Below, piece after piece: positions 24,901-61,898 of a stretch of DNA of 64,000 nt (its first letter is position 1; each line of letters opens with the position of its first letter). This DNA comes from Schmidtea polychroa. Its lineage: Eukaryota. The translations under genes and the position numbers were made by a program. The DNA lies in contig CM097885.1 of assembly GCA_044892525.1 (NCBI GenBank), positions 5,024,001-5,088,000 on the forward strand, in the 5' to 3' direction. The notes beneath the pieces are model-generated. The model was not told where the DNA came from, ran no database searches, and saw only the letters and a list, made by a program, of their open reading frames with translations.

Positions 24901-25234
24901 GAAGAAAACAAGACTTAAAAGGAGAATTAAATTTTGAGAGTTAAAAAAGAGAATCAAAGGGAGAATTTAAAGGAACATTTAAAGGGAGAATTAAACAGAG
25001 TTCAGAACAGAGTGAAACGAGAAGTGACGTGAATCTTTTGTAAAATTGAATATAAAGTGGAAATGGAGTAAATAAATTGGTGGTCAAAGCAAATAGGACA
25101 AATCGATCAACATACCCTGTAATTGAGTAGTTGACGGCTAGTGATTATTGTTGTGGTTACAGAAAGGGCTATTCTTCACGTAGTGTCGAAATAAGCTCTG
25201 TGTGATAAATTGGTTTATAGTACTTTTGGTTGTA

Positions 25235-27307
<2,073 letters not shown>

Positions 27308-27486
27308 GACTCCACCGTTATTGTTGTATTGTGTGAGCACACACTCGTTATAATAATTAGCAATATGAATAGAGTTTTCATGGTGTATCAAATCAAAACC
27401 TTTCTTTTACATTTATAGTCTATCAACCAATCAAAATCATCCGGTATTAGTATAAATAAAACATCATATTTTAAATTATTGTAAAA

Positions 27487-28007
27487 ATGTCTCAATTTAT
27501 GGAAAATCTTTTAAGAGAACTCGTCAACAGGAATATTATGGAAAGCCTATGTTTCCTGGTCGATCGGACCGAAAAGATTATAGAAGGTAATCACATTGAT
27601 TATGACGATGTGATCAATTCTGATTGTCTCGAAACCAAAAAATTCTATTTTAATAGAATTTTTAACTGTCTATGCGACGATCAGATGAAGTGGACCCGAA
27701 TACTAGTAGGGTTCGCTTATATGAAAATAATAATCCAAAGAAGTCTATGGGACTCAGAGCACTATTATCAGTGGTCTCAAGAAGTAATACTTTTATAATT
27801 TATATTTTATTAATATTTATTTTCTAGATAATCAAGTCAAAGTTTCAACCATGGATTGAAGCCAATGGCGGATGGGGAGTACTCAATCAACTCGCCAGAA
27901 ATGCAAAAGAAATAGACGATCAGAAAAGAAAATTTAAAAACTATGTAAAACTTGCAACAGGTGTTGCTATTTTGTATATTTTAACCAGATTTTTAAATAA
28001 AAATTAA
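27487..28007 (+). CDS. Bcl-2-family protein, two exons (27487-27783, 27828-28007), 158 aa
   Basis: BH1-like DDQMKWTRILVGFAY, 44-nt GT-AG intron, BH2 PWIEANGGW, C-terminal anchor LATGVAILYILTRFL plus a basic tail. Confidence 0.85.
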
Positions 28008-28090
28008 TATAGTTATTTTTGTTTGATTTTTAAATAAATTTTTAAATAACATTTTAAATAAATTTACAAACACTAATTAACTAAGATTTA

Positions 28091-28468
28091 TTAATTAACA
28101 CATTCGCAGTCGTCATCTCCACATTTCATTATATTTTCAACGACATGATCAATACAATCATTCGTAATATTATCTTTAGATTCATCTTTAGGTTCCTCTA
28201 TAGGTTCCTCTATAGGTTCATAGATTTCCTCTTGAGTTTCTTCCTCATCAATTTCTTGAGTTTCTTCCTCATCATCAAATCCTGTATCTTGACTCTCAAC
28301 TAACCAGCCGATATTTAAGGCATTTGTAATAGATAATATATCCTCCATTTTCACACCAGATATTTCTGCTAACTTTTCCAACAAAAAGTTGATTAAAAAT
28401 TCTAAATAATAAATAATTCGGTAATTAATTAATTAATCATGTTAACCTTTTTCTACAGTCATTTTCAT
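28091..28468 (-). CDS. Small acidic protein, two exons (28468-28447, 28401-28091), about 110 aa
   Basis: ATG at 28468; a 45-nt GT-AG intron joins it to the ORF (MKMTVEKEFLINFLLEKL...). EEETQE/EEPI repeats. Confidence 0.6.
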
Positions 28469-28595
28469 CACTTTAAAACTAAATTATAAGTTTGTTTATA
28501 GATTTTCTTTGTTAAATTTGCATGTCATTTGCATTTATGTTGCAATTAATAAAGAGAAAAAACAAATCTGACTAATACATTTATTAAATATAACA

Positions 28596-29006
28596 TTAAA
28601 ATATTTGTGAAAGTCTAGCAGACATAACTTTCCAAATAGGAGAATATACATCATTATTATCAACTTTATATCCCTGGATTGCAATTGTTATATACCAATT
28701 TTCATTTTCTTTGAAAGCGATTTCATCAAAGGAATCATAAAATCTTGCATATCTATTATTGAACCATGCATGTTGATTACATGATAGATTCGAATCTATC
28801 CGTTTAAAAACATCGTCAATAGTTTTGACATCAATCATTGAAAGCGTGCCGGATAAGAATTCAAATTTAGTTGGAATTAGCTTGACTGGTGCAACCAATT
28901 TCATATTGATTTCTTCTTTCAAAAAATACATTTTGTAGTTGTGGAACATTTGAACTGGTTGTACCATTTCTTTAGGTTTTTCGGTGCTTGAAATTTTCTT
29001 GGTCAT
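28596..29006 (-). CDS. Hypothetical protein (136 aa), possibly an OB-fold ssDNA-binding protein
   Basis: Intact ORF with TATA and CCAAT motifs upstream. Beta-rich C-terminus YITIAIQGYK...SPIWKVMSARL. Confidence 0.6.
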   Translation of the reverse strand: MTKKISSTEKPKEMVQPVQMFHNYKMYFLKEEINMKLVAPVKLIPTKFEFLSGTLSMIDVKTIDDVFKRIDSNLSCNQHAWFNNRYARFYDSFDEIAFKENENWYITIAIQGYKVDNNDVYSPIWKVMSARLSQIF

Positions 29007-29352
29007 CGTGAATAATGAATAAATTTAAATGTTACAGGGTTTTTATACCTTTGACTCATGCCTATCAACCAATCAGATTATAGCATGTCTTTGTTTAAAT
29101 TGCATTCAAAATGCATTGATGTTGCATTGTCACATGTTCTATTTACAGATTTATTATTAATGTTTAAATTATTACATGTTTTGATATATGTACAGATTTA
29201 TTATTAATATGTTTCATTATTATTAATGTTTTTTACTATTATTACTATTCATATTTCTATTACTATTATTATTACTATTACTATTATTATTTCAAATATA
29301 AAACACAATAAAACACAATAAAAAAGATAAAACACAATAAAAAATACATTTA

Positions 29353-29766
29353 TTAATAACCCAAATCTACAATCTTGGAGTAGTGAAACCTTCTCAGAGT
29401 TTTCACTAACTCCCATTCGACATATCGCCGATATCGATCGGCGCAACATGAGCATCCGATGATGCACTGGTACTCTGGCTCCATTTGTTTGATGGTTCTG
29501 TTAATCTTTATATCCCACAGAAACTGGTGAAATACATCCATGATTCGAATTTGAGTCGCATAGAATATCAGATCTGGAATGATCTCAGGTTCGCGATCCT
29601 TGATAATTTCAATAATTTGAGGATAATAATATTTTATCCTTTTTATCATAACTTCTAAATATTTCTCTAAAATAATAAATAGTAAATAATGTGAAAAAAA
29701 AATTTTAAATTTACCGGAATCGTCGATATCTTTCATGAGGGTTGCAGAGCTTGGTAATTTGTACAT
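29353..29766 (-). CDS. Hypothetical Cys-motif protein; probable in-frame 48-nt intron at 29667-29714
   Basis: ATG at 29766, AT-rich GT-AG segment, CIIGCSCC motif, upstream CCAAT repeats. Confidence 0.55.
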   Translation of the reverse strand: MYKLPSSATLMKDIDDSGKFKIFFSHYLLFIILEKYLEVMIKRIKYYYPQIIEIIKDREPEIIPDLIFYATQIRIMDVFHQFLWDIKINRTIKQMEPEYQCIIGCSCCADRYRRYVEWELVKTLRRFHYSKIVDLGY

Positions 29767-29839
29767 AGTGTTGAAAAAATGAATTCTAAACAAAAACCGT
29801 TTGTTTAAATCAATCAATAACCAATTAGAAATTAACCAA

Positions 29840-30277
29840 TTAGAAATCGACCAATGAAATTATCTCATTTCGAACATTGTCAACAAATTCTCTATACTCC
29901 AAATTTCTCAACCCCAACATGACAACCTTTCCACTAGCAAACACGTTGACACATATAGGGTTATATTTTAATAGTCTTAGTGCCGGAAACAATTCCGGTT
30001 CAAACATACAATCACATTTTTTCGACATGTTATATAGATTGATACTATGTCCCATATCCATAGTAACGGTAATTGATTGGATTTTAATATTATTTATTCG
30101 ATATTGTAATTTATTAATATCCAAAGGTTTCTTACATCCCATGATTCTGCATTTACCAGTCTTGAAAAATATTATCGGATATTTCCCACTTCTATCGATA
30201 ATTTGCTGGGGTTTCCCTGGTGGGAACCTCATATTCGATACATCAAAATTTCCTCGATAATTTATATTTGCTAACAT
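29840..30277 (-). CDS. Divergent TATA-binding-protein-like protein (145 aa)
   Basis: Two TBP repeats: IIFFKTGKCRIMG, and KIQSITVT...INL...FEPELFPAL...NVFASGKVVMLG. Canonical TBP has IFSSGKMVCTG, KIQNMV, YEPELFPGL and IFVSGKVVLTG. Confidence 0.85.
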   Translation of the reverse strand: MLANINYRGNFDVSNMRFPPGKPQQIIDRSGKYPIIFFKTGKCRIMGCKKPLDINKLQYRINNIKIQSITVTMDMGHSINLYNMSKKCDCMFEPELFPALRLLKYNPICVNVFASGKVVMLGLRNLEYREFVDNVRNEIISLVDF

Positions 30278-30376
30278 TATTAAATCATTTATGAAAATTA
30301 GTCTTTATATACAAATTGAGCACGAGTTCATTAAATCATCGAATATAAACAAATACACATTTATAAAATATTTGAA

Positions 30377-30595
30377 ATGGAATTAAGAAATGATGCTGTA
30401 TACCAAATCGTTGGTCCGAGTGGTAGTGGAAAAACATTATTTGTTTGTAAATTACTAAAATCCAATTTATTCAAATCAAAATTCAACAGGATTTATTGGC
30501 ATAGGGGTGCTGATGAAGAACATGGATTAACTCAATCAAGTTTCTGTAAATTAAAAAACATGAAAATAGTAAAGGGATTCGATAAAAACTGGTCG
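30377..30595 (+). pseudogene. Truncated A32/FtsK-like packaging ATPase, fused in frame to the next gene
   Basis: Walker A IVGPSGSGKT near the N-terminus. Only about 73 residues precede unrelated sequence, and no Walker B follows. Confidence 0.75.
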
Positions 30596-30640
30596 ATAAA
30601 AACACCATCTAAAAAACTTGTAACTGAAAATTTCTCTGCA

Positions 30641-31039
30641 ATGAATCTTATTTCGAAAAATCCTAAACCTAAACGTAAAACCCGTAAAACCCGTAAAACC
30701 GGTAAAAAAGTAGTTAAAAATCATCGCAGTTTTCCATTTTTTAATGCATTGTTAAAGGCTCCGAGTATGAAAAGAATGAATATATTGCAATCATTCCCAA
30801 ATTTTGTTGTCGATGATTTACTCAATATTATACTTAAAGTAGTCAAAGGCAAAATTAAAATCAGTAAATCAAAAAAGCATTTATTGAGCAAACATAGGAA
30901 ACCTTTATTATCTTTAGTAAATAATAAAAATCGTAAGCAAATGAGGAAAATTATATATAAACAACAAGGTGGATTTATTGGTGCCTTGATACCTCTGGCA
31001 TTATCATTATTAGGTGGAGTTGTAGGAAATCAATCATAA
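30641..31039 (+). CDS. Basic Polinton core/virion protein with a C-terminal QxGG-hydrophobic segment
   Basis: Lys/Arg-rich; ends KQQGGFIGALIPLALSLLGG, an adenain-type cleavage site followed by an amphipathic/hydrophobic tail. Confidence 0.7.
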   Translation: MNLISKNPKPKRKTRKTRKTGKKVVKNHRSFPFFNALLKAPSMKRMNILQSFPNFVVDDLLNIILKVVKGKIKISKSKKHLLSKHRKPLLSLVNNKNRKQMRKIIYKQQGGFIGALIPLALSLLGGVVGNQS

Positions 31040-31042
31040 ACA

Positions 31043-31270
31043 ATGGGTGCTAATCCTTCATTGCCCGACATTAAATTTAATTTTAAATCTTCTTGTTGTA
31101 ATGGAGAAGATTTGGACGAACCCAGAAGACGAAGCCGGTTTCGGTGGAGTGGCAAAATTAAACAAAAGAGTTCCGAATTCGAAAAAAGAAACCCAGAAGT
31201 GGTTATCAGATCAGCTTGCGTACAGTTTGAACAAACCAATGCGGAAAAGATTTCCAACAAGAGCGTATAA
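31043..31270 (+). CDS. Candidate overprinted N-myristoylated small protein
   Basis: MGANPS start in acaATGG context, 3 nt after the upstream stop. Overlaps the integrase 5' end in another frame. Confidence 0.4.
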   Translation: MGANPSLPDIKFNFKSSCCNGEDLDEPRRRSRFRWSGKIKQKSSEFEKRNPEVVIRSACVQFEQTNAEKISNKSV

Positions 31271-31488
31271 AACATTTGGTATTGACGATTTATGGCAAAT
31301 GGATTTGATGGAGATGATACCATATTCGAAAATTAACAATGGGAATAAATATATTTTAACATGTATTAATGTATACAGCAGGTTTGCACGAGCAATACCA
31401 GTCAAGGCAAAATCTGCAGAAGAAATGTCCAAGGCAATTAATATTTTATTTAAAGATGGACATCCTAATAATTTGCAAACAGATTTAG

Positions 31489-31553
<65 letters not shown>

Positions 31554-32183
31554 TTAGGTAAAGAATTCTACAATAGCAAAGTTAAGCAAATCCTCGATAA
31601 ACTGAAAATAAATCACTACTCGGTACATTCTCAATACAAAGCTGCCCATGTTGAAAGATTTAATCGAACATTGAGAGATAGATTAAAGAAATTGTTCGTG
31701 CATCAAGGTAATAAAAAATGGGTAAATGCTTTACCGAAAATAATAACAAGTTATAATCATTCATCACATCGAGGACTGAATGGATTGAGACCGGTTGATA
31801 TTACATCAAAAACACCATTATCTAAAAAATCTGTAAAAATTGCAAAACCTAAATATAAAGTCGGTGACCATGTTAGAATTAGTAAAATTAGTGCATCACC
31901 ATTTATTAAAAATTTTGATACAAATTGGAGTGATGAAGTCTTTGTAATTTCAAAAATAAATACTAAACAGAATCCTGTAATGTATGTCATCAAAGACAAT
32001 GATAATAATATTGTACAGGGGAAATTTTATGAGCAGGAATTACAAGTCATTCCTCCCCCAAAAGTATTTAGAATTCAAAAAATATTGAAAACTAAAAAGG
32101 TCGGTAAGGATAAACAATACTATATCAAATGGCACGGTTATCAAAACCCGTCATGGATATCGTCAAAAGACCTAGTAAAATGA
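31101..32183 (+). CDS. Retroviral-like DDE integrase with a C-terminal chromodomain; 69-nt intron at 31489-31557
   Basis: WQMDL, QTDLG|KEFYN after splicing, VERFNRTL, YKVGDHVRI, GKFYEQELQ, YYIKWHGY. Confidence 0.93.
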
Positions 32184-33184
32184 ATTTTTATATTATTTTA
32201 CCTAGCAATAGCTGTCCACTTATTCATCCAGATAATAAAGCCAGCAAATTCAGGGTCAATCTTCAAAATCCGATATATTTGGATAATAGCTGGGAAGTTG
32301 CTCTGTTGGATTTTACATTTGTATACCAAGCCTTTCCATTTTATAGTAAGGCTAAAATTGGATACAAAAAGAATGAGTGGCAGGATAGATTATTGTCTAT
32401 GATCATTGATAATGCAGATGATGAAGTTCGGTTGTCTAACTCAACTGATCCAGCTGTGAAAATGTATATTAACCATTCATATATAGTAGTTGAATGTAAA
32501 CATTATCCTTTTACTGTAAAATTTGATAGTTTGGAAATGGCAAAACGATTGGAATTAAAAACCCAAAGTCATAAAGTTCTTTCCGATAAATTCACTATGC
32601 TACGACCGGGATATTCCAAAACTGTACAGCGATTTGAACCAATTTTATTTACAGTTTCATATCCGGGTATAACGTCTGGTACATTTGAGTTCAAAGATAA
32701 TTTATACATTTCGAAATTGGATGAATTACAGACATATTTAAAACAAAGTGGTTTATTTAAATCATTGGAAATATCAGACAGATTCAAATTCAGTTTGAAT
32801 CCCGAATTTACTGAAATTACTTTTGATGCAAATCTAATAAAAACATTAGGATTATCAAAAGCAACATATGCTCAAGATGATCAAGGTACCCTAGCTCCGA
32901 AAATAATTAAACTTCACCAACAAATGTTCATCTATAGTAATATTGTTGATCCTGTAATTGTTGGCGATTCTTTGGTCCCACTCCTGAAATCTGTTTGGAT
33001 TGAAAAATATGAACATGATGAAGTAGTCAATATAAATATCGATAATCCCATGTATTTACCTGTGTCAACCTCATGTATAAACAATATAGAAATAAATATA
33101 CGTGATGATTCTGGTAAATTAATCGCATTTCCAAAAGATTCAAAAACTCATTTAACATTACATTTTCGTAAAGTAGATGGCTAA
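32180..33184 (+). CDS. Minor capsid (penton-like) protein
   Basis: MNFYIILPSNS...NKASKFRVNL...WEVAL and MFIYSNIV...VGDSLVPLL...IEINIRDDSG...LHFR. ATGA overlap with the integrase stop. Confidence 0.88.
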   Translation: MNFYIILPSNSCPLIHPDNKASKFRVNLQNPIYLDNSWEVALLDFTFVYQAFPFYSKAKIGYKKNEWQDRLLSMIIDNADDEVRLSNSTDPAVKMYINHSYIVVECKHYPFTVKFDSLEMAKRLELKTQSHKVLSDKFTMLRPGYSKTVQRFEPILFTVSYPGITSGTFEFKDNLYISKLDELQTYLKQSGLFKSLEISDRFKFSLNPEFTEITFDANLIKTLGLSKATYAQDDQGTLAPKIIKLHQQMFIYSNIVDPVIVGDSLVPLLKSVWIEKYEHDEVVNINIDNPMYLPVSTSCINNIEINIRDDSGKLIAFPKDSKTHLTLHFRKVDG

Positions 33185-33542
33185 TTCGGATATTATAAGT
33201 ATGTATAGTGGTAGCCAATCTGGCGGTGAATTACCATATTTTATTGGTAAACAGTACGGATCAGGATGGTTGAGAACAATTGGTAGATTTGCACTTCCTA
33301 TTCTTAAACGTATTGGTAGTTTTGGTATGAAAACTGCTAAAGATGTTATTATGAATGAACAGAAAATATTACCATCTCTAAAATCAAATGCTTTAGCAGA
33401 ATTAGGGAAAGTTTTACCCGGGGTTGCAGGTATGTTTCAAAAACCAGCTCCAGCTCCAGCTCATGCTCCAAAACGTAAAAGACATGGAATATCACGTATA
33501 AACAAACGAATGAAAGGCCATGGAACTATATTTGCAAAATGA
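33177..33542 (+). CDS. Core protein with QxGG/QxGxG motifs and an amphipathic helix
   Basis: QSGGELPYFIGKQYGSGWLRTIGRFALPILK and a basic C-terminus. Lies between mCP and MCP, as is typical for Polintons. Confidence 0.75.
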   Translation: MANSDIISMYSGSQSGGELPYFIGKQYGSGWLRTIGRFALPILKRIGSFGMKTAKDVIMNEQKILPSLKSNALAELGKVLPGVAGMFQKPAPAPAHAPKRKRHGISRINKRMKGHGTIFAK

Positions 33543-34762
33543 TTTGTGGTAAATCTGAATTATGTATATTTGATAGACCGTCGCCCCAGGCTGTAATAGA
33601 ATTTGGGGCGTTTGAGGAAGTTTTTCCAATGAATTCAATTACTGATAGTAGAAATGATATAGAGTTTTATATTAATGGTTCGCAAACTGAATATTTAGAT
33701 TTGAACGATACTTTATTGACTGTTCAGATCAAGGTTATAGATAAAGATAAAAAAGCTTTGGGTGATGCTGCTGATGCAATACCGAACAATTTCATGTTTC
33801 ATACTCTTTTTAAAGATGCTGTGTTGGGATTTAATAATATCAAGATTGAAGGTGGTAATAATACATTCATTCACAAGGCTTTGATAGAAACTATTTTAAA
33901 TTACAATTCCGATACTAAAAATACATGTCTTACTCCAATGGGATATGCTGCAACCGACGATGAAAGAAAAAAGTGGATTAAAGGCTCAAAAACATTCACC
34001 ATGTGTTCATCGTTACAACTCGATTTTATGGATCAACCGAAATATTTGCTTCCAGGAGTTAATGTCCACATTCGATTGAAAAGATCCGATTCTGCACTAA
34101 CTCTTACTAGTGCTACAGGTGCACCAATATGTCAATTAGTTGATGCAAAATTATTGGTGAGAAGAGTTCGAGTAGACCCCTCAGTATTAGCTGGTCATCA
34201 ATTGGGTCTTAATTCAAAACATGCAATTTATCCATTAAAAACAAAGGAAATTGTACAATTTGCTATTGCTAAAGGTGCTTCATCATTCTATAAAGAACAA
34301 ATATTTGGTGACAGAAGAATGCCTAATTTTATTCTGATAACATTTCAAAGTGAAGCACAATATAATGGATCATATACTGCGTCCAGCTCAATTTTCAAAA
34401 ACTTTGGTGTTACATCATTGACTTTGTCGAAAAATACTGATTATAGAGAAACATATATTCAAGATTTCGAGAATGACAATTACTGCGCGACATATATGCA
34501 GAGTATTGTTAGAAATCTCGGTTATTTAGATAAAAATTTGAATTGCGGAATAACACTAGAAGAATTTAAAAGCAAATACCCATTTTTCACATTTGTTCTA
34601 GCTCCCGATTTTGATTTAAATCAAAGTCAATTACCTCAAAATGGAAATTTACGACTGGATATAAAGTTTGCAAAAGCTATTACTGAACCAGTACATGTTA
34701 TAATATATGGAGTATTTGAAAATGAAGTTCAAATTACTGCAAATAGAACAGTGTTGGTATAA
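33539..34762 (+). CDS. Major capsid protein (double jelly-roll)
   Basis: KSELCIFDRPSPQ, IEFYING...EYLDLNDT, QPKYLLPGV, GNLRLDIKF. Intact, 407 aa. Confidence 0.92.
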   Translation: MICGKSELCIFDRPSPQAVIEFGAFEEVFPMNSITDSRNDIEFYINGSQTEYLDLNDTLLTVQIKVIDKDKKALGDAADAIPNNFMFHTLFKDAVLGFNNIKIEGGNNTFIHKALIETILNYNSDTKNTCLTPMGYAATDDERKKWIKGSKTFTMCSSLQLDFMDQPKYLLPGVNVHIRLKRSDSALTLTSATGAPICQLVDAKLLVRRVRVDPSVLAGHQLGLNSKHAIYPLKTKEIVQFAIAKGASSFYKEQIFGDRRMPNFILITFQSEAQYNGSYTASSSIFKNFGVTSLTLSKNTDYRETYIQDFENDNYCATYMQSIVRNLGYLDKNLNCGITLEEFKSKYPFFTFVLAPDFDLNQSQLPQNGNLRLDIKFAKAITEPVHVIIYGVFENEVQITANRTVLV

Positions 34763-35174
34763 ATGTATACAGAAACACAAAAAGTTATCATGGAGTAAGT
34801 TGTTTTTTATACTCTGGATTTATTTAAATAGTTCTGTTCAGGTCAATAAAATCGGAAAACAGATATTGGGAAATGAATTTGTTGGAGTTTTTCCTCTTGA
34901 TAAAATTCCATATTTGAGCAATAATCAAGCAATAATCGTCAATACTCAATCGTCTCATCTTGGTGGAGAACATTGGATAGCTATATATGTGAAACCTGGT
35001 AATATATTCGTGTTCGATCCTATGGGTTTCTATTACCCAGCTTTGTTGATATCAAAACTACAAACAATGGGAAAACCTATTGTGTATAATAAAACTATGT
35101 TTCAAAATCCTTTGACCCAAACATGCGGTCAACATTGTTAAGCTTGGTTATTGTACAAAAAATTTGATGTTTAA
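34763..35174 (+). pseudogene. Adenain-like cysteine protease; probable 37-nt intron at 34795-34831; nonsense codon at 35139
   Basis: GEHW, FDPMG and FQNPLTQTCGQHC catalytic motifs. TAA occurs where the paralogous copy near 62185 has TTA. Confidence 0.8.
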
Positions 35175-35266
35175 AGAAAAAAAATGTTTAATAAATTTGA
35201 TGTTTAATAAATGTATCCTTTCCTTTGTTGTTGTGTTATTATTATTAATATTATTATTATTATTAA

Positions 35267-35321
<55 letters not shown>

Positions 35322-35682
35322 ATTATTAATATTATTATTATTGTGAAAAATATTATTATTTTTAATTAATTTTATTATTATTCTAATAAATATTATTATT
35401 TGTAACATAAAGACTGCCTTTGCATGAGGCATGCACAGTGCAAGTTAACAAAGGCATGACTAACAAAGGCAGTCACATGTAATTCTGACTGATTTACATT
35501 ACATACATGCATGCGTGTGATTGGTTGAGAGAGTAAAATATTCAATGTATATGTGTGTGTGTCTATATTCTCATTGGCTGGGACAGGAAAATATTCATTC
35601 TCTTTATAAACATTGACAAATCTAAAATTTGTCACAATTATTTCAAATTTTTCAAATTTCGATTTCAATTTTAAAAATCTAA

Positions 35683-37345
35683 ATGGCTAACAATAATAAA
35701 AATGGAATTCTAAGAAATCTTTTGACGACAATGGGTAATTTATTTTATTTTATTTTATTATATTTTATTTTATTATTATTTTAGAACCATTCGATTGGTA
35801 CGATGTAACGGAAGATGACTCGATATTAACAGTGGATAAGATCTTCGGTAAATTTATTATTATAATTTTTAATAAATTATTTTTTTTTTCAATTCAGAAA
35901 ATGCTTCAAATAGCGACGATGATGTCGTCTTTATCGGGGAAAGTAATGCTCCTAATAAGATCTTTGGTAAATTTATTATTATTTTTTTATTAAATTATTT
36001 TTTTTTTTCAATTCAGAAAATGTTTACAATAGCGACGATGATGTCGTCTTTATTGGGCAAACTGATGCCCCTAATTATGCCCCTAATTATGCCCCAGTTC
36101 TCAAAGAAAAAAGTAAATTTTATTATTATTTCTATTAAATTAATTTTCATTTCAGAAAATGTTTTAAATGTTGATATTGACGAAGAAGAAATTAATGTCC
36201 TCGCATCGGATGATGGTGAAATCTGTGAGAATGATGGGCAAATCTCATCGGATGATGATCAAATCTCAGAGAATGATGGGCAAATCTCATCGGATGATGA
36301 TCAAATCTCAGAGAATGATGGGCAAATCTCTGAGAATGATTCCGACATGGAATCAAAATGTAAGAAATATTTATTTTTATATATATATATTTTGTTTTTT
36401 ATTTATATGTTAAATTTGTAATAACTTATTTAAATATTTTGATAAAAAACTTTTTTAAATATTTTAATAAAAATTATGATGAAACTTCTGAAGAAAATGA
36501 TTTTATGATTTATAATGAAAATATACCGAAAAATTATGAAGAAAAATGATTATGTTTTATAAAGAAAATGATGAAAATGATGAATTTATGATGAAGAAAA
36601 TGATGAAAATAGGATGAAAATCAATTATGATGAAAATATGACGAAAATTATGATGAAAATGATTTACAACCAAAATTATGATGAAAATGATTTATGATGA
36701 TATAATGAAAATGAATTATGATGAAGATATGACGAAAATTATGATGAAAATGATTTATGATGATATAATGAAACTTCTGAAGAAAACTATTTTATGATGA
36801 AAATTATTTATACCGAAAATTATGATGAAAATGATTATACTAAGTTTCTGAAAGTTATTATTATCAAAATATTTAAAAAGTGATTACAAATTATGGTTAT
36901 AAATCCTTGTAGTTTGCAATGTGCATCTACAATAGTTAAAATAATAATAATAATATTAATAATAATAATAATAATAATAATGTAGTCTACAGTGAGCATG
37001 TAGCTACATAGTAGTCTGCAGTGAGCATGCAGCTACTTTTCTTTTATATAATAATAATAATATATAAATAATAATTAGACCCCGTCTACAGTAGTTTGCA
37101 GTAAGCATGCAGCTACATAGTAGTCTGCAGTGAGCATGCAGCTACTTTTCTTTTATATAATAATAATAATAATAATAATATAAATAATAATAATAATAAT
37201 ATAAATAATAATAATAATAATATATAAATAATAATATAAATAATAATAATAATATATAAATAATAATCAGACCCTGTCTACAGTAGTTTGCAGTAAGCAT
37301 GCAGCTACATAGTAGTCTGCAGTGAGCATGCAGCTACTTTTCTTT

Positions 37346-37393
<48 letters not shown>

Positions 37394-37848
37394 TATAAAT
37401 AATAATCAGACCCCGTCTACTAAAATCTCTCTAATATTCTATCGAATATATTAACCTATTTTCTATAATGATTTATCATCATTTGTTATTTAATTCAAAT
37501 GAACTATATAACAAATGATGATAAATCCTTGTAGAAGTAACAATTAGTTTCCTATATAGAAAAAAAACAATAAAATTTTAATTTTATTATTTAACAGGTA
37601 TACTATACCCGAACTATTGTCAAACATCAATTGGACATAGTGATAAATGTCATAGAACAATGACAAAATATTACCGAAAAAAGTTTAATTCGGTCAACTT
37701 TTTTATATGCCCCAAATGTGTAACGAGCGAAAAAATAAAATATAGGGAATTTTTTAATAAACATCATAGTCACTTAGGGCAATTTTCGATATCAAAAAAT
37801 GTTTTATTTAAAAAAATAAATAAAAAATTAAATAAAAAAAAAAATTAG
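35683..37848 (+). CDS. Spliced acidic, SIM-rich N-terminal region, probably the 5' exons of pPolB (35683-35734, 35785-35847, 35898-35966, 36017-36112, 36156-36359, 37598 onward)
   Basis: Five consecutive phase-1 GT-AG introns give one open frame. It stops at 37848, in an A-run where a 1-nt shift would enter the pPolB frame. Confidence 0.65.
36982..37340. repeat. Paired quasi-palindromic repeat TAGTCTGCAGTGAGCATGCAGCTA (six variant copies here, two more at 41875-41939)
   Basis: Seen directly; pairs are separated by (AAT)n. Confidence 0.8.
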
Positions 37849-37904
37849 AAAATAATTTACAAAAAAACTTACAAAAAAATTTAGAAAATAATTTACAAAA
37901 AAAT

Positions 37905-40900
37905 TTGCAAAAAAATATTAAAAAAAATAAAAAAAATATTATTAAAGATTCAAATATTAAAAAAGATGCTATTAAAAAAGATACTATAAATATTATTAAA
38001 AAAGATATTATAAATATTAAAAAAGATTCGATTAAAAGACCTGCTGGTTTAATTAAAAATTGCATTCCTAATAAATTATCGCGACCTGAAGTGATAGTCA
38101 TCAGCAAAGATGAATGTGTAGCTTCAACATCGTTTACACACCAAGCACCTATTACACAACACGCACCCATTACACAACAAGAAGTGATAGTCATCAATGA
38201 TGAATGTGTAGCTTCAACGTCTTTGAACATATGCCAAATAGGCGGCTCTTTGTTTGAACCTATGGTAGAATCCGATTTGAACGGATCGCGTAAAACTTTA
38301 AGATTTGATATTAGAAATCAAAACTTAGTAAAAATAGCCCTAACATCAAAAATTGAAGATAGATTAATACAGGAAATAGAAAAGATGGGCAATGTAAAAA
38401 TTCAATTCACAATTTTAATTAAATTTGAAAAAGATGGGGAGATCCGGGATAATTATTTTTCCAACAATGCTCAAGTTTTTACATCAAACTTTATAAACGA
38501 GGGGGTGAGCAAATTAAATGAAAAGATTGAGCAATTCACCTATTTAGGAAGCGGGTGGCGAGTAATGAATATTTTAGAAATAGATTTTATTTTAACGAAA
38601 TACGCACCCGTCAGTAGATTATCCGGACATAGCTATATAAAAACCCCATCAGCATTAAAATTAAAACATGCAATAATTAATGTAAAAAACAACGACCATA
38701 AGTGCTTCTTGTATAGCATTCTTGCACTTTTAAAAAGAGAAGAAATAGGTCGTAATCACCAAAGAGCCGCCAAATATATAGAATTTTTACCTCTATTAAA
38801 TTATGACGAAGACACTGATTGCCCGATGAGGCTATGCAACATTCCCAAATTTGAAAGAAAAAATAGAGATTTAAACTTGAGCATAAACGTTCTGTCTTAT
38901 AATCCAGCCAGTTCTGATTTAGATATTTCTGAGGATTATGTAGCTCACCACCCTCATCTTAATATAGTACATCGCTCCAAGGTTATAGACGGTAGACCAA
39001 TTTATTTATTACTTTTGAGTAATAAAGATAAATATCATTATACAGCCGTGACAGACTTGGACAAATTAATGAATTGTCATGAAAATGAAAATGTAAATGT
39101 TCAAATAAGGTGTAACTGGTGCCCACATTGTTTAAATGGCTTTAGATATAAGAATGCTTTCGATCAGCATGTTGCTCTATGCTGTAAAAATCAGACTGGC
39201 ACAACTTTGTATACACTTCCTAAAAATAAAGATTTATTATTCACAGATTACGCAAAAACAGTTACACCTCCCTTCGTAATTTATGCCGATTTTGAATCGG
39301 TTTTACCAGAACATGAAACATATCATCAAATACATTTACCCATATCAGCAGGTCTTTTATTAATTAATAATTATACACACACTAAATTTTATTATTATTT
39401 TTTTGGACCTAATTGTATTTTGGATTTTTTGAGGAAAGTGGAGGAAATTGCTGTCACAATTGTCCTGCCATATTATGATCTTGAAGGTCATAAAGGTATG
39501 TCTACTTTGTCTTTTGCTCAGGAGCGTGCCTTTCGATCTTCCACTATTTGTTATTTGTGTAAAAAATCTATTATTAATCCTGTGAGAGATCATTGCCATT
39601 TTACAGGTAGATATGTCGGAGCGGCATGTAGGAAATGCAATGTCTCTCGCAGGATTAATAAATTGTTACCTGTTGTCTTTCATAATTTACGAGGCTATGA
39701 CCTCCACCATATTTTAAAACATGGTCTCAGTGATTTTCCCCTTTGGGAACTTAATATTATACCTACCTCTACAGAAAAATTTATATCTTTAATTGCATAT
39801 ATTAACAAATTGCCTGTTCGTTTTATTGACAGCATGCAATTTGTTAATTGTTCTTTAGCAAAAGCTGTGAAAACCTTAACTACTTTTCCTTTGACTTCGT
39901 CTGTCTTTCAAGGGTCGATGATTCACTCTAAAGGTATCTTTCCATATAATTTCGCCACTTCTTTAGATGTTCTTGAATCGACTTTAGAATTACCTCCTAT
40001 TTGGTCTGATGTTACGGAAGATCAGTACGCTGAGGCTCAACTAATTTGGAGTCAGCATAACTGTAATAATTTGTTAGATTATATGTTAATCTACTTAAAA
40101 TTGGACGTATACCTCCTCGCAGATTATTTTCAGCAATTCCGCGGTAAGGCAATTGCTTACAATGGTCTGGATCCTCTTAATTTCTACGGGATTCCCGGTA
40201 TGTCATGGGCCTCAGCGCTTATGACATTAACGGAACCAATAGAACTTCTGCAGGACATGGAAATGTATAATTTCTATGAGGGAGGTATCCGGGGTGGGTT
40301 AACATTTGTTAACAAACATTACACGGCTACTTCAGATGATACAGAATTATTGTACATTGATATAAATAATCTGTATGGTTGGGCTCTTAGCCAAAATCTT
40401 CCGTATGGTGATTTTTCTTGGGTGAATAATAACTTGAATGATGTTTTACTTGAATGTATGAACACGGATATTGATAACCTTCCATATGGGTATACTATGG
40501 AGGTCGATATCGATATTCCGGAATGTGTGCATGACTTTTTGAATGATTTTCCGCTTGCTCCGGAAAAGTTGTGCCCGCCTAATTCAAAAGTTGAGAAGCT
40601 TATGCTTACGCATTGGCCAAAGAGGAACTATGTTCTTCATTGGAGGCTTCTCAAATTGTATATAGAATTAGGTGCGGTTGTTGTAAATATTCATAGGTGT
40701 ATAAAGTTTAAACAAGGACCTATCTTTAAATCCTACATAGACACCAACACCACTTTACGATCTCAGTCTACTAGTGAGATATATAGGGACTTGTTTAAAT
40801 TGTATAATAACTCTCTTTACGGTAAATCGGTTGAAAATTTGAAAAAAAGAATGAATTTGAGGTTGTGTAATTCATCCGAAAAGATGATAGTATACTCCTC

Positions 40901-41654
40901 AAAGCCGACTTTCAGAAAGTCCATAAGAATCGATAACGATCTGATTGCGGCACATTTGGAAAAAGATGTGATTTGTTTAGACAGACCTAGCTACATTGGT
41001 CAAACAGTACTAGATCTGTCTAAACTGCGGATGTACCAGCTCCAATATATTGATTTGGAGAAGTACAGACGCCAATATAAATGTATCATAAATATTATTG
41101 CCGGTGATACCGACAGTTTCTTTTTGGAAATAAAAAATTTAAAATTAACAACTTTATTACCTCAGATGATCTCTGATAATTTATTGGATACGTCAAATTA
41201 CGATCCAACCCACCCCTTGTATAGTAGGAACCTTGACTCGGTCATCGGGAAGTTTAAAGATGAGAGCAAGGGATTAGGGTATTCTGAATGGGTTTTCTTA
41301 CGCCCTAAATGTTATAGTCTTTTAGGTAGTAAGGAAACGGTAAAAGCGAAAGGGGTTAAATTACCAGGGACATCAATAAATCACGAATCATATCTAAATT
41401 GCTTTCATTCAAATCAGGTGATTTCTGTACCGCAGACTAGAATAGGTACTAGAAATCACCAACTTTTTACTTTTAAAAATTCGAAAATTGCCCTAAGTAA
41501 TAATGATGATAAGCGCGCGTGGCTAGGAAAAAACTTAAGTTACGCATTTGGGCACTATTTAGGAGTTGACGAATTAAGCGAATATGATGAGGAATTCGGT
41601 CCAGCTCCAAGTCCCAGTTTTGACGACAGCGAATGGGACGAAGATCAAATTTAA
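37905..41654 (+). CDS. Protein-primed family B DNA polymerase with an EndoVII/HNH-like zinc insert
   Basis: IYADFES, CYLC...VRDHCHFTGRYVGAACRKCN, FHNLRGYD, YIDINNLYG, KLYNNSLYGK, AGDTDS, GKFKDE, LRPKCYS, KAKGV. Confidence 0.96.
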   Translation: MQKNIKKNKKNIIKDSNIKKDAIKKDTINIIKKDIINIKKDSIKRPAGLIKNCIPNKLSRPEVIVISKDECVASTSFTHQAPITQHAPITQQEVIVINDECVASTSLNICQIGGSLFEPMVESDLNGSRKTLRFDIRNQNLVKIALTSKIEDRLIQEIEKMGNVKIQFTILIKFEKDGEIRDNYFSNNAQVFTSNFINEGVSKLNEKIEQFTYLGSGWRVMNILEIDFILTKYAPVSRLSGHSYIKTPSALKLKHAIINVKNNDHKCFLYSILALLKREEIGRNHQRAAKYIEFLPLLNYDEDTDCPMRLCNIPKFERKNRDLNLSINVLSYNPASSDLDISEDYVAHHPHLNIVHRSKVIDGRPIYLLLLSNKDKYHYTAVTDLDKLMNCHENENVNVQIRCNWCPHCLNGFRYKNAFDQHVALCCKNQTGTTLYTLPKNKDLLFTDYAKTVTPPFVIYADFESVLPEHETYHQIHLPISAGLLLINNYTHTKFYYYFFGPNCILDFLRKVEEIAVTIVLPYYDLEGHKGMSTLSFAQERAFRSSTICYLCKKSIINPVRDHCHFTGRYVGAACRKCNVSRRINKLLPVVFHNLRGYDLHHILKHGLSDFPLWELNIIPTSTEKFISLIAYINKLPVRFIDSMQFVNCSLAKAVKTLTTFPLTSSVFQGSMIHSKGIFPYNFATSLDVLESTLELPPIWSDVTEDQYAEAQLIWSQHNCNNLLDYMLIYLKLDVYLLADYFQQFRGKAIAYNGLDPLNFYGIPGMSWASALMTLTEPIELLQDMEMYNFYEGGIRGGLTFVNKHYTATSDDTELLYIDINNLYGWALSQNLPYGDFSWVNNNLNDVLLECMNTDIDNLPYGYTMEVDIDIPECVHDFLNDFPLAPEKLCPPNSKVEKLMLTHWPKRNYVLHWRLLKLYIELGAVVVNIHRCIKFKQGPIFKSYIDTNTTLRSQSTSEIYRDLFKLYNNSLYGKSVENLKKRMNLRLCNSSEKMIVYSSKPTFRKSIRIDNDLIAAHLEKDVICLDRPSYIGQTVLDLSKLRMYQLQYIDLEKYRRQYKCIINIIAGDTDSFFLEIKNLKLTTLLPQMISDNLLDTSNYDPTHPLYSRNLDSVIGKFKDESKGLGYSEWVFLRPKCYSLLGSKETVKAKGVKLPGTSINHESYLNCFHSNQVISVPQTRIGTRNHQLFTFKNSKIALSNNDDKRAWLGKNLSYAFGHYLGVDELSEYDEEFGPAPSPSFDDSEWDEDQI

Positions 41655-41980
41655 ATAGAAAAAACTTTATATTTTTGATTTATAAAAACTTGTATAGTGA
41701 TTTCATGATTTATAAAAAATTGTATAGAAACTTTTATTTAAAAACTTGTACAAAAACCTGTATATTGTATAAAACTTGTATTTATATATACATATTCAAT
41801 AAAATTTTTAATAAGATTTTTTAAGTATTTGGTGTTTTATTATAATTTTTTTATATTTAATGGTGATTTTTATATAGTCTGCAGTGAGCATGCAGCTATA
41901 TGTTTTTTTTTATATAGTCTGCAGTGGGCATGCAGCTATATCAATGAAATAATAATAATAATAATATTAATAATATTAAT

Positions 41981-42053
<73 letters not shown>

Positions 42054-42061
42054 TTAATAAT

Positions 42062-42122
<61 letters not shown>

Positions 42123-42206
42123 CTTTAAACAGGTTGCAAAGGGTACTAGTCATGCTTATTATTGTTATACATTTGATGGTTACATTTTGAAAGCTCTATT
42201 TTGATT

Positions 42207-42632
42207 TTTAATAAATCAATATGTGTTTGTCCGAATACAGCCAAGTTGATGGATATTTTATATATTCTCGATAAACCAAAATGGTCAAAGCATCCAGGAA
42301 AAAGAATATCTCAAAGATTGGAGAATTTAGAAAACAGTTATGAACTAACATTTGAATATATACAAAATATAAAAATTAAATTGATTGATCATATTGAGGT
42401 TTTCAATAACTCTATTACTGAAAATAAAAAGAATATGAAGATTATTGATAAGAAGCATGATTATTTGTTAAAAAAGATTGAATTATTATTAAGAGAAATT
42501 CAAACAATCAAAGGATCAATAGAATATCTGAAAATCAATTCAACGTTACCAATTTCTAACAATAATGCTGCGAATAGAAGTGCATCAATATTTAGTTTAC
42601 CTTTGTTAATTTTACATTATTTTATTGTTTAA
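42207..42632 (+). pseudogene. 5'-truncated TIR copy of the GPI-anchored coiled-coil gene
   Basis: Same protein as 26881-27381 from FNKSIC onward, but without the ATG or signal peptide. Confidence 0.8.
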
Positions 42633-42757
42633 ATAAATGTATGTTTTGTTGATTTGTTGAGCGTGACCAGTACCCTTGTGAGCATTACCCATAGGGGGAC
42701 AAAATATTTTGTCGGATAGACTCAGAGTATATAGACTCGGTGTATATAGATTAATAC

Positions 42758-42916
<159 letters not shown>

Positions 42917-43072
42917 GATATATGGCTCATTCGAAAGGTCTTGGATTGAGCTTTAAAATGAGCTATCGATTATTAATTTTCGTTGGCGGGAACTTTGAAA
43001 AAATTAAATATAAAATAATAATATTTTTAAAAATAATAATAAAAATAATAATATTTTTTAAAAATAATAATA

Positions 43073-43605
43073 TGACCTTGATGAGTCATCGCGATGGCTC
43101 ATATGACCTTGGGAATGACCTTGGATGAGTCATGTGACCTTGAAAATGACCTTGATGAGTCATAGGATGACTCAGATGACCTTGAAAATGACCTTGAAAA
43201 TTTTGATGAGTCATCGGATGAGTCATATGACCTTGAGAATGACCTTGATGAGTCATAGGATGAGTCATATGACCTTGAAAAAATTTTTCAGGGTCAAATG
43301 AGTCATACTATGAGTCATATGACCTTGAAAATGACCTTGATGAGTCATATTATGAGTCACATGACCTTGAAAATGACCTTGATGAGTCATGGTCTTTGTT
43401 TAAATGTCCTTGAGAAATTTTTTTTGACCTTGATGAGTTATATTATGAGTCACATGACCTTGAAAATGACCTTGATGAGTCATCGGATGAGTCATGGTCT
43501 TTGTTTAAATGACCTTGAAAAATTTTATGAGTCATAGGATGACTCATGGTCTTTGTTTCAATGACCTTGATGAGTCATATGTCTTTGTTTAAATTTGACC
43601 TTGAA
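43073..43605. promoter_or_regulatory. Mirror-image AP-1/NR-site array in the right TIR (about half the length)
   Basis: Repeated ATGAGTCAT and TGACCTTGA. Confidence 0.65.
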
Positions 43606-46600
43606 AAAAAATGTACTTTTAGACTTAGAATATTTTTGAAAATCTTACCGACGGGGGGGAGGGGGGGTACTGTGCTAGCGGTGCCCTGTGCCAGCGGTGC
43701 CCAATCCATCTACTGTTGTAATATAAATCTGTACAATACCGTGTGGATATTAATAAAGCTTATCGTGTTCGAGAGTGTTGAATTGTGAATTAATAAACAC
43801 GCTATGGAGTCAGAGTAAAAGTTTGAATTTACAAACATTGTCACCAACCCAATAACCCAACATATCGATACTACATTTAGAATATTTCAATAGCACTGAT
43901 TATGAGCGCGCTTTACTGCCGACTACTTGATTTTCGAATGCGTTAGATTTCTTTACTACATTCAAAAGCATGCAGAAAATATGAAAAGTTTACCGGTCAG
44001 TTAAGAAAAAACAAGTTAAGTATAATACAAAATAGCTTAATGTGGCAACAGAGTTTATTCATAAAACTGTCGGCTGAAATAAGCAATGAAATAAGCCACA
44101 TTTTATCCAATAAACTAAAAGCTTTTTTGACGGTAATGTAATATAAGAATGTCTCGAAATAGTCGCTGGTCGAATTGATGAAATGACAAAAAATTCGCGA
44201 TCAATTTAATCAAACTTAGTCATACATATGAATATCTTTCTATTTGTTTGGTTGAATCCCCACGTATAACTCTGATACTTGCTAATTTTGTTAGTGGCAT
44301 GAACACAGCATTGAACGTAACCGAAGAATTTGTTGGGCTGAGCCGAAAGATAGCTGGGAAATCAGGTTAAACTTAACTAAAGAAAAATAAAAAAATAAAA
44401 TAAATAGATCGAGGAATAAAATGGAATAGAATATAAGAAAAGCAATAATTAGAAAATAAGAATTAAAACAAAAAACATAAAAATAAGAACAATTAAATAG
44501 GACAATAGAATGACGAAAAATAACGTAAAAGGTAGTAGATAATAAGGAAATTAAGGAAAATAAATAAAAACATAATTTTAATAAAGAAAATAAGAAGAAA
44601 TAACCCAAAAACAAGGAAAATAAATTAAATAAATAAAATAAGGCGGTACTCAATTCTGATTGGTCCGCATAAACAAAAAATACCTATATAAGTAAACAGC
44701 AAATTCACTATAATCAATGTTAAACCAAACCAATTATAGGTAAGAATAGTATTAACTATATGAAATAAATGTTAAACCAAACCAATTATAGGTACTCGAC
44801 AATCAGGAAAACCAAACCATACTCAGACGACTACTAGGGACAGTTCTACAGACTACTCATTCATATAACCGATTAGATCAGTTTATATTTCGGCTCAGCC
44901 TTTGGAACTACAGAATTTTTCAAATAGTAAAGTAAGGATATATTGCTGTTATGAAATTTGTTTTGAAGGATTTAAATATTTCTATTATAATAACCTAACT
45001 TTTGAATAAAAAACTTCTCCATTCGATTTCAATTTTTTAATGATTTTATAGTTCATAAATTAATTTAAAGGTTAATGATATATAAATATTTATGTTATGT
45101 TTTGTCATCGAACGTATTGATTATGCTAAAATTATTGGTATTGAGAAACGTGGAGTTGAGGAGACCCACGCCATGGCATGAGGAGCCTTAGGGAGCTCAG
45201 CCGGCGGGTGTGGATCTCTTCAATCACGCAGCTGACGTGGGCCGGAATGTGGGGGCTTCCTCACGGGTCCGTCGCTGAGGGAAATGAAATGCTGCAAGCA
45301 CGGGTTTAAAGTACAGAGGAATATATTCCAATATTGAAAAGTAGAGCAAAATTGAATTGAAAATGACTGAGGTGGCTACAAACTCTTAGTAAACATCACA
45401 CTCTGAAATTTCATCCGACATCAGAAATCGTATATTGACATCAACTGACATTCTATCTTTTAGCAGAAAAATATTTTTCTATCAAAACTTACTGCGTACA
45501 AATAGGTTCATCAAATGCGAAATCGGAATATAGAGAGCATAAATAAAGACTTATTCAACAAATGTTTTGTAGTATAAATATAATTGTCAACAAACGCTGT
45601 AATTTTTCCATTGCTTCTGAAAATCCACGATAGCGGCAACGCGAGGTTCTTTCTATAAACGACTCTTTCGACCAAAATAAGAGAGATTTCTGTTGAATGA
45701 ACTGCTGGGGATATTTCCCGAAATCACAACATCCAAGTAGAAAACCGGAGGGAACTGCACATCGCGAGAATAAAATTCCAACGTTCACGCGCGGTGAGAA
45801 TTACTCATAGAGAACATATTGAATAACTAAAATAATTCTAACTCGCAGTGTGAGACGATCAGCTGCAACCCGTTGACATAGATAGTAAGAAGCAGACAAG
45901 GCAAATCACACGCATTGCCACATATAAATACACACTGACATATGCCGCATGCATCCTTTTCCCAGCCCGCTAATGACGGTGAGAACAAAAATTGAAGCAC
46001 ACGCTCATGACATAATTATCTCCAATAGATATGTATCTTTCCGATTCATGCGGCTAATGATTTCTACGAGTGATTCATGCGTCGTCGGGTGACTGTTAAT
46101 AATCGACTAAATTTTATAGGTTGAGTGCACCAATAGACTCCATAATGAAAAATAAATAAATTGATTTTTAGGATGGGGATAGAAATCTGATCATACGCGA
46201 CTTATTAAAAATCTAATAGTAGCACGTTGATTAAACGGGTTTTCTGAATTTAATATTCAAATATGAGTTACAATTTGGGGCCATTAATTTAAGGATCGTT
46301 CACGCGGTACTGGAGAATTTTGTTTTACGTTTTTCAAAAATAAATACCTGTAGTCGAAAAGCGATGTGCAAAAATGAGCATTAATTACTCAATCATGCAA
46401 ATATTCCTGATTCTTCCTAAACCATTTTTATGGTAAATTGTAAATCTAATGTCCATTACGTCAATACATTCGCGAGTCATTTTTCACGTAAATATTTGAA
46501 AATCTCAGATAACGGTAGGTAATGAATATTTTAAGTATAACCATAAAATTTTGGCAGAGTATTATCCAAATGTTGATTTCTCTTACACCCTAAATAGACA

Positions 46601-61030: not shown

Positions 61031-61898
61031 ATACTTTTTAAAAATATTACGTTGCGGTATTTTAAAATTTAAATATATTTTAAAAACTATCTGAAAAGAT
61101 ATTCTGTGCCCCTACTCACAAAGGTACTGCTCACAAAGGTACTGCTAAAAATATTCAAGGCAAAACTTTAACATATTATTACACACACACACACAATGTA
61201 CAAAAAATATTATTTAGTGTTCTAGCGGGCACATGGTTTTGATCTTCAGTTTACCTTCATGCCTGAATGTTTACCTTCAGTTTGAATGATGACATTTGTG
61301 AAGTTACATTTGATAAAAATTTGACAAATACACTTGGATTAGAGAAGCAGCAATATCGGGAAAAATCGGCGGGTATACGTAAACCAAGAATACTTGAACA
61401 TCATTAACAAATGTTTATATATACTAACATTATTGAGCCTATAATTGTTGGTGATTCCAGTGTTCCTCTATTGAAATCGGTATGGATTGGAAAATACGAA
61501 CATGATGAAGTTGTCAATATAAATATAGATAATCCTATGTATTTACCAATTTCAAGCTCATGTATAAACAATATAGAAATAAATATTCGTGACGATAGTG
61601 GAAAACTTATAAACTTCCCAAAAGACTCAAAAACTCATTTGACACTACATTTTTGTAAAGTAGATGGCTAATTCTGATATTATTAGTATGTATAGTGATA
61701 GCTAATCTGGCGGTGAATTACCATATTTTATTGGTAAACAGTACGGATCGGGATGGCTAAAAACAATTGGGAGATTTGCACTACCTATTCTTAAACGTAT
61801 TGGTAGTTTTGGTATGAAAACTGCAAAAGATTTGATTATGAATAAACAGAAAATATTACCATCCCTAAAAACAAATGCTTTAGCTGAATTAGGTAAAT

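Follow-up and report, generated by a model that had tools for sequence, protein, structure and literature searches.

The TBP-like late factors of beta- and gamma-herpesviruses, namely EBV BcRF1, KSHV/MHV68 ORF24 and HCMV UL87, are proteins of 550-1000 aa with approximately 10% likeness to the TATA-binding protein (TBP), which work within a multi-protein viral complex. BcRF1 and ORF24 act with a variant TATT box at late genes, and BcRF1 binds TATA and TATT alike in vitro (PMC4893493), so that specificity might need partners. The gene described here lies in a Polinton/Maverick element within a 64,000-nucleotide window of Schmidtea polychroa DNA (contig CM097885.1), the whole stretch that was analysed, and encodes a TBP-family protein of only 145 aa, with approximately 25% likeness to TBP, a retained TFIIB stirrup and no evident viral partner. 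The element shares with the herpesviruses the combination of a TBP-fold protein of its own and no RNA polymerase of its own, and further TBP-bearing large viruses without an RNA polymerase exist. It also appears to share a variant TATA box before late and capsid genes and canonical TATA boxes before early genes, although the putative variant reads YATAAACR in the element and TATT in the herpesviruses. BcRF1 ranked low in a fold search with the element TBP (E 0.03), while a search among proteins of 341-2000 aa for large multidomain relatives of the herpesviral type gave one match among 4010 candidates, a 357 aa member of the family, which is weak evidence on this point. We regard the herpesviral TBP-like factor as an analogue of the element TBP rather than its orthologue.

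The TBPs of giant viruses (Nucleocytoviricota) and poxvirus VITF-3 share with the element TBP an N-lobe without host regulator signatures (PMC7221094, PMC12917281). Giant-virus TBPs are accompanied by a viral TFIIB and mostly by a viral polymerase, and their stirrup glutamates have drifted to only ~40% conservation (PMC7221094), whereas neither a viral TFIIB nor a viral polymerase was found in the element and its stirrup glutamates are conserved. The premise of a first-pass annotation of this locus, that large viruses bearing a TBP carry an RNA polymerase, is too simple, since the herpesviruses encoding BcRF1 have none (PMC4893493). With cellular TBP/TRF (PF00352), the element protein shares the two-lobed saddle and the equivalents of F116, F190, F207, P191, N69, E186 and E188, but it differs in the loss of F99, the replacement of 7/11 base contacts, the deletion of the N-lobe helices in its subclade and its placement in a separate clade.

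Polintons/Mavericks and the 'adintoviruses' have in common with the element a protein-primed family B DNA polymerase (pPolB), an rve integrase, a packaging ATPase and a protease, as well as capsid-type genes, long terminal inverted repeats (TIRs) and a 6-bp target duplication (PMC8502044). A 'TBP' label occurs in a 2021 figure legend on MELD viruses (PMC8502044 and its preprint). The available running text of that paper, its figure content left aside, describes no TBP family, residue pattern or promoter box, while the available text of its supplement makes no mention of TBP, although the maps in its figures may show more. Beyond the legend label, no description of a Polinton TBP family or of the box was found in the literature covered, which lay outside subscription journals, Repbase and figures, and searches of PMC5825884 and of the readable supplements of PMC7221094 gave no match.

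The Polinton/Maverick element and its genes

The element spans positions 25235-43714, with ends AGTAG...CTACT, inverted repeats of ~2.1 kb and ~1.5 kb, and the 6-bp target duplication GTTGTA at 25229-25234 and 43715-43720. Its length of 18,480 bp, measured from the TIR ends and the target duplication, bears out the earlier estimate of ~18 kb. The AG..CT TIRs, 6-bp duplication, pPolB, rve integrase, packaging ATPase and cysteine protease identify it as a Polinton/Maverick. Its main features are as follows:

25235..27307, + strand: left terminal inverted repeat, beginning AGTAG, with an array of TCAAGGTCA and TGA(C/G)TCA words
27487..27798, + strand: Bcl-2-like ORF (weak Pfam match, E 0.01), with a canonical TATA upstream
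28596..29006, - strand: OB-fold single-strand-binding (SSB)-like protein, neighbour of the TBP gene in one subclade (fold Z ~7, middling)
29840..30277, - strand: TBP-family gene, 145 aa, intact (ORF, Pfam, structure model)
30377..31039, + strand: N-terminal part of the packaging ATPase, joined to the PZ end (~520 bp deletion, this copy only)
31101..32183, + strand: retroviral-type integrase with chromodomain (Pfam), with an (ATT)n insert near 31489-31557
32129..33184, + strand: putative minor capsid protein (by gene order, no Pfam match)
33177..33542, + strand: putative PX-type small basic protein (by gene order, no Pfam match)
33539..34762, + strand: putative major capsid protein (by gene order, no Pfam match; conserved across related loci)
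34707..35141, + strand: adenovirus-type protease, its frame stopping earlier than in 30 sister copies
38262..41654, + strand: pPolB with an endonuclease-VII-like insert (homologues match DNA_pol_B_2)
42206..43714, - strand: right terminal inverted repeat, ending CTACT, followed by GTTGTA

The names minor capsid, PX, PZ and major capsid are putative and follow the gene order of Polintons; the major capsid ORF has no Pfam match, and its naming as the double jelly-roll capsid protein rests on this gene order. The ~520 bp missing at 30594/30602, which fuses the ATPase to PZ, are present in 28/29 other copies, the remaining copy being unclear. The window copy is thus defective in ATPase/PZ and protease, while its TBP gene is intact. 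An in-frame (ATT)n microsatellite flanked by GT..AG lies within the integrase gene (31489-31557) and is probably an intron.

Pfam comparison of 14 element ORFs (19 ORFs were scanned) gave no match to RNA polymerase families, in accordance with what had been noted at first pass, and no match to TFIIB. The TBP neighbour was considered as a TFIIB partner, which was ruled out when folding gave an SSB-like OB fold; in fold comparison it resembles ASFV CP312R, phage Enc34 SSB and T7 gp2.5 (Z 6.8-7.3). Many relatives of this SSB-like gene seem to have an upstream exon, with GT..AG words before the frame, and a further Atlas search with the protein returned no match. The TBP gene had been described as divergent from the structural genes; this is true here and in a sister family, with a 99-bp gap to the ATPase, but the arrangement is not conserved, as in many relatives the TBP gene is co-oriented with the ATPase or placed behind the protease.

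Predicted fold and DNA-binding face of the element TBP

The ORF at 29840-30277 (- strand) runs uninterrupted from ATG to stop over 145 aa and requires no intron, as first annotated. It matches the Pfam TBP family (PF00352; E 1.6e-15; 57.1 bits; cut-off 22.9), reaches a probability of 99.4 against the TBP family in profile-profile comparison, and among its PDB sequence matches TBPs make up 35/36 listed (best E 1.8e-11). An AlphaFold model built on an alignment of 92 relatives has a pLDDT of 96.4, and its residues 1-145 align to residues 66-240 of yeast TBP (1ytb; Z 13.2; rmsd 2.5 Å). Yeast and human TBP match the model over its whole length (Z 13; rmsd 2.4-2.5 Å), while the best non-TBP fold match reaches Z 6.8. 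The model thereby confirms the ORF as a predicted two-lobed TBP saddle inside a Polinton/Maverick, with both TBP repeats recognizable, and the absence of a TBP fold, named beforehand as grounds for refutation, is not what structure comparison found.

The first repeat had been called shortened, and it is: N4-F38 comprises 35 residues versus 48 in plant TBP, and G47-Q67 comprises 21 versus 34, giving deletions of 13 residues in the H1/S2 region and 13 in helix H2. Helix H1 and strand S2 are missing from the N-lobe, as is the greater part of helix H2, and residues 1-61 of the model contain no helix of at least 4 residues. This helix deletion is a trait of the element's own subclade; deeper family members retain a helix-length N-lobe segment, from which the basic run is absent.

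Residues were surveyed in 211 family rows, with yeast numbering transferred via plant TBP. Equivalents of the intercalating phenylalanines F116 (96%), F190 (99%) and F207 (98%) are retained, together with those of P191 and N69. The N-stirrup F99 is lost, with Phe in 9/203 rows and absent in 194/203; the alignment register is uncertain at this position, yet neither register has a Phe. Examination of the intercalating residues, as proposed at first pass, therefore yielded three of the canonical four. The accompanying question of the TFIIA and TFIIB surfaces also divides, as far as the alignment indicates. TFIIB is contacted by E284/E286 of human TBP (PMC7221094), and the equivalent glutamates are conserved: E186 (E93 here) in 92% of rows, with a further 4% Asp, and E188 (E95 here) in 98%. 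TFIIA, TAF1, BRF1 and Mot1 dock on the N-lobe surface of TBP (PMC7221094), whereas the basic H2 surface that would receive them is absent here, with 13 residues deleted and no long helix.

The DNA face is altered in a conserved manner. Among the 11 TATA base-contact residues listed in PMC12209930, 7 are replaced, N69, P191 and V213 are kept, and L114 is changed conservatively. The new conserved residues are V122R (96%), T124M (99%), L205N (98%) and N159S/T (97%), with further replacements at V161T/S (97%), V71N (75%), I194R (80%) and, more loosely, T215L. Three second-repeat substitutions are known to shift TBP specificity (PMC10005294). In the element TBP, R44, M46 and N111 represent near-invariant new DNA-face residues. 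The specificity-shifting positions are, we assume, I194, V203 and L205. The replacement of seven base contacts by conserved residues argues that the DNA face is under selection for something other than TATAWAWR.

Genomic copies, relatives and phylogeny

The host genome was searched for TBP copies over 781 Mb in four large contigs. All 150 copies scored (of 4174 candidates) are free of stops, 111 being identical and 39 sharing 99% identity, and a second TBP-bearing family with ~60% identity is present in the same genome. Relatives of the element TBP number 109 among 113 candidates, while a profile search with E up to 1e-10 collected 794 proteins, some of them canonical TBPs. Another gene of the element is held by 46/81 loci fetched by TBP similarity, many of the others being short, and a fetch by integrase only (37 loci) added one more TBP (L179). 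Among 45 listed pairs (106 passed the filter), 40 were computable, and their dN/dS values of 0.05-0.43 indicate that the gene is under purifying selection. A pseudogene is ruled out by these values and by the stop-free copies (150/150), and the suspicion that the gene might be pseudogenised or absent in relatives did not hold, as it is intact and widespread.

In a TBP tree of 80 rows, 55 family rows stand apart from host, plant, archaeal and other viral TBPs (support 100/99), the separate clade that the phylogeny proposed at the outset was to look for. The tree comprises short, divergent proteins under a midpoint root. Recent capture from a host TBP paralogue was rejected, as the tree separates the family from the host sequences with this support. 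TBP-bearing integrases likewise form one clade (96/96) with two subclades, and the same two subclades are recovered in the TBP tree. The element TBPs are therefore a monophyletic family linked to a single clade of Polintons.

Besides its canonical TBP, the host has six or more divergent TBP-like loci (L112-L117, L119), some apparently intronless. Searching the genome for TFIIB-family sequences yielded 21 matches (32 candidates), many fewer than there are copies of the element. These include tandem open frames of 301-310 aa on contigs C1 and C3. One host TFIIB-family exon (L258) resembles BRF1 by a sequence motif. A scan of viral contigs with the TBP family profile gave one unrelated TBP locus only, and two such scans with the capsid protein gave no match.

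A candidate late promoter box

Alignment of the upstream DNA of each gene class revealed an eight-base word, YATAAACR, which was scored within 100 nt of the ATG; near-identical upstream sequences were counted once and genes without a placeable start were dropped. The box precedes the ATPase in 27/28 cases, PZ in 19/19, the major capsid gene in 10/11 and the PLA2-like gene in 10/11. It is found less regularly before the exonuclease-like gene (16/23), the small MG-ORF (8/13), the integrase (7/12), the minor capsid gene (7/15), PX (5/10) and the protease (3/6), and seldom before SSB (3/20), PW (1/10) and the second minor capsid gene (1/3). Within the same 100 nt it occurs before 0/68 TBP genes and 0/4 pPolB genes, the latter being an unfair test because the true start possibly lies in upstream exons. 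On the reverse strand there are no matches in any late class and eight for TBP, partly owing to head-to-head layouts, while dinucleotide shuffles gave fewer than 1.2 matches per class, and fewer than 0.8 in each of the ten classes from the ATPase to the protease.

Among the 103 matches in the last 70 nt, 58 lie at 33-39 nt from the ATG and none at 19-31 nt; nine matches lie only 8-18 nt from the ATG. The distance of 33-39 nt matches the spacing of a TATA element, as judged from the upstream sequences. The box is preserved even within the coding sequence of the upstream gene, and the major-capsid box has the same offset in 29/29 copies of two families in which the start was found (30 loci examined). 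Boxes in the window copy, with the canonical TATA box facing the TBP gene, are as follows:

30303..30311, - strand: canonical TATA box (TATATAAAG); TBP ATG 34 nt downstream (30/30 copies examined)
30344..30351, + strand: YATAAACR box; packaging-ATPase ATG 33 nt downstream (30/30 copies)
30956..30963, + strand: YATAAACR box; small ORF at 31043 87 nt downstream
31035..31042, + strand: YATAAACR box; integrase ATG 66 nt downstream, with the small ORF at 31043 only 8 nt away
33076..33083, + strand: YATAAACR box in the minor-capsid frame; PX ATG 101 nt downstream
33497..33504, + strand: YATAAACR box within the last part of the PX frame; major-capsid ATG 42 nt downstream

The minor-capsid and protease starts of this copy are without a box within 100 nt and have only the GATAAACA variant. 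Additional boxes at 35605 (+ strand) and 28493-28500 (- strand) have no long ORF directly behind them and may mark spliced genes.

The box is associated with the presence of the TBP gene, being found before 59/134 ORFs in 14 TBP-bearing loci versus 3/139 in 18 loci where none was detected; the latter are longer Polinton-like loci on partial contigs, and a TBP could lie beyond the contig. In one of them (L195) the ATPase is preceded by a box at a distance of 41 nt, while in L178, which is too short to show a TBP and falls within the TBP clade, 4/5 genes have the box upstream. Taken together, YATAAACR represents a strand-specific candidate promoter box of packaging and capsid-type genes in the TBP-bearing clade. 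In the orientation expected for TBP on DNA, the N-lobe, which has lost F99 and acquired R44, would cover position 7 of the box (C).

Canonical promoters of the TBP and early-type genes

In 30/30 copies the 99-bp gap between the TBP and ATPase genes contains TATATAAAG facing TBP and TATAAACA facing the ATPase, back to back. The SSB, Bcl-2-like and TIR genes of the window copy have a canonical TATA, with CCAAT also upstream of the SSB and TIR genes. Across relatives, TATAWAW is located at -60..-15 in only 32/68 TBP genes. Those without a clear TATA often carry TTGTTTTA/TTTGTTT, a near reverse complement of the box (L004, L007, L008, L017, L021-L024, L045, L048, L051, L061-L064), for which autoregulation or a host site is a possible explanation. 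The loci L168-L177 and L195, where no TBP was detected and many of which are close kin, show the upstream words TAAATAG, TTCAGTA and TATAAAT, possibly canonical TATA/initiator promoters.

Proposed role of the element TBP and alternative explanations

We suggest that the element TBP is probably a Polinton-specific late-promoter factor that recruits host TFIIB and Pol II. Host TFIID would transcribe the early genes (TBP, SSB and Bcl-2-like) from CCAAT/TATA promoters. The viral TBP would then bind YATAAACR ~30 nt upstream of the starts of packaging, capsid and virion-associated genes, and its conserved C-lobe glutamates would dock host TFIIB, thereby recruiting host Pol II. Because it lacks the N-lobe convex surface, it would escape control by TFIIA, TAF1, BRF1 and Mot1/BTAF1. 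The redirection of host Pol II to capsid-gene promoters, raised in the first-pass annotation, thus gains strong indirect support from a candidate box in the TBP clade and conserved TFIIB glutamates. Several late genes without a box (PW, second minor capsid), the clear TATA in only 32/68 TBP genes and the single joint gain of TBP and box count against it. Whether, in one clade of animal-type Polintons, a 145 aa orthogonal TBP alone runs a complete early-to-late cascade, reading YATAAACR, plugging into host TFIIB-Pol II and being immune to TFIIA/TAF1/Mot1, is a stronger proposal, which we consider evenly poised.

Host TBP/TFIID or a host TBP paralogue might instead read the box as a weak form of TATA, the element TBP helping at most non-specifically or having another role. 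TATAAAC and TATAAAA are one base apart, and the host has paralogues in addition to its canonical TBP. Furthermore, TBP and box appear to have been gained once on the integrase tree, so that their co-occurrence counts as a single joint gain. We consider this reading unlikely, however, as position 7 is C in 82/101 TATAAA and 37/42 CATAAA words upstream of late genes and remains so among elements with capsid proteins that share just 26% likeness, while early-type genes of the window copy use canonical boxes and TBP-less loci are nearly free of YATAAACR.

A dominant-negative decoy, the other role first suggested, would sequester TFIIB (or BRF1) or block host TATA boxes, damping host transcription. 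The retained TFIIB-contact glutamates and the loss of the regulator surface and one Phe are in keeping with it, but a decoy needs no near-invariant new DNA face, leaves the matching box upstream of element genes unaccounted for, and sits poorly with >100 intact TBP copies in the host genome; it is disfavoured as quite improbable.

Just as improbable is that the box is a forkhead-type site or a variant poly(A) signal of the upstream gene, unrelated to TBP. The forkhead consensus is RYAAAYA, of which ATAAACA is a perfect instance, and the box is often located at the end of the upstream gene. Against both stand the strict orientation before late genes, G after C in 20/117 matches and the sharp lower distance limit of 32-33 nt. 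A poly(A) signal is further contradicted by the box before the ATPase, where 30/30 copies have no co-oriented upstream gene, and by boxes up to 75 nt before the downstream ATG, within the PX frame. Moreover, ordinary AATAAA is found at 6/10 gene or cassette ends inspected. At 2/10 cassette ends a box has no annotated gene behind it, which counts against the late-promoter reading. Cassettes ending in AATAAA suggest nested transcripts with shared 3′ ends.

Least probable of all is a non-transcriptional role, such as binding single-stranded or terminal DNA in protein-primed replication: the TBP gene adjoins the single-strand-binding gene in one subclade and the ssDNA-binding Giardia TBP shares three substitutions (V to N, N to S, V to T; PMC12209930), but the Giardia protein lost three Phe whereas the element family keeps three and both TFIIB glutamates, and the YATAAACR box would be left unexplained.

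A late-promoter function of the element TBP would bear both on the timing of Polinton gene expression and on the status of these elements as real viruses with an infection programme. If the single-factor cascade is real, no smaller late-transcription switch would be known from a virus, and it would have converged on the TBP-TATT system of herpesviruses; it would also provide a natural TBP:promoter pair of altered specificity and evidence for these Polintons as autonomous nuclear viruses. One small protein and a matching 8-bp box permit a cheap and direct test, and the box may serve as a marker for sorting early from late genes in largely unannotated elements. The family furthermore offers natural experiments on which TBP residues alter TATA specificity and on whether a TBP without N-lobe helices can start Pol II transcription.

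Terminal repeats, accessory genes and other sequences

Positions 25235-26400 of the left TIR, mirrored in the right TIR, hold 37 TCAAGGTCA words (+ strand) and 42 TGA(C/G)TCA words in 1.17 kb, while 45.5 kb of host flank contain 0 and 4, respectively. We take TCAAGGTCA to be an NR5A/ERR nuclear-receptor site and TGA(C/G)TCA an AP-1 site. This dense array suggests that the TIR may function as a signal-responsive enhancer. The TIR also contains an ORF at 26881-27381 (- strand), present at both ends with a shorter right copy at 42249-42632 (+ strand), whose product is hydrophobic at both termini with a coiled coil between them, and which has CCAAT and TATA upstream.

Accessory genes of related elements encode a ubiquitin-conjugating enzyme (L016:222-719), an LRR protein (L029:1918-3330) and a KilA-N protein (L070:7142-8002), and L016 additionally has two minor-capsid-like genes in tandem. 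The Polinton integrase contigs L178-L203 occur within bacterial metagenome-assembled genomes, most likely through binning contamination. A fragment of a related Polinton is located at 61270-62184 of the window, comprising the minor capsid end, the PX start and the protease at 74-97% protein identity, with the major-capsid gene absent between the remaining parts. Pieces of a host TRAF-like gene (RING, TRAF zinc finger and MATH domain) are found at 54213-55681, adjoining a direct repeat at 55623/57995.
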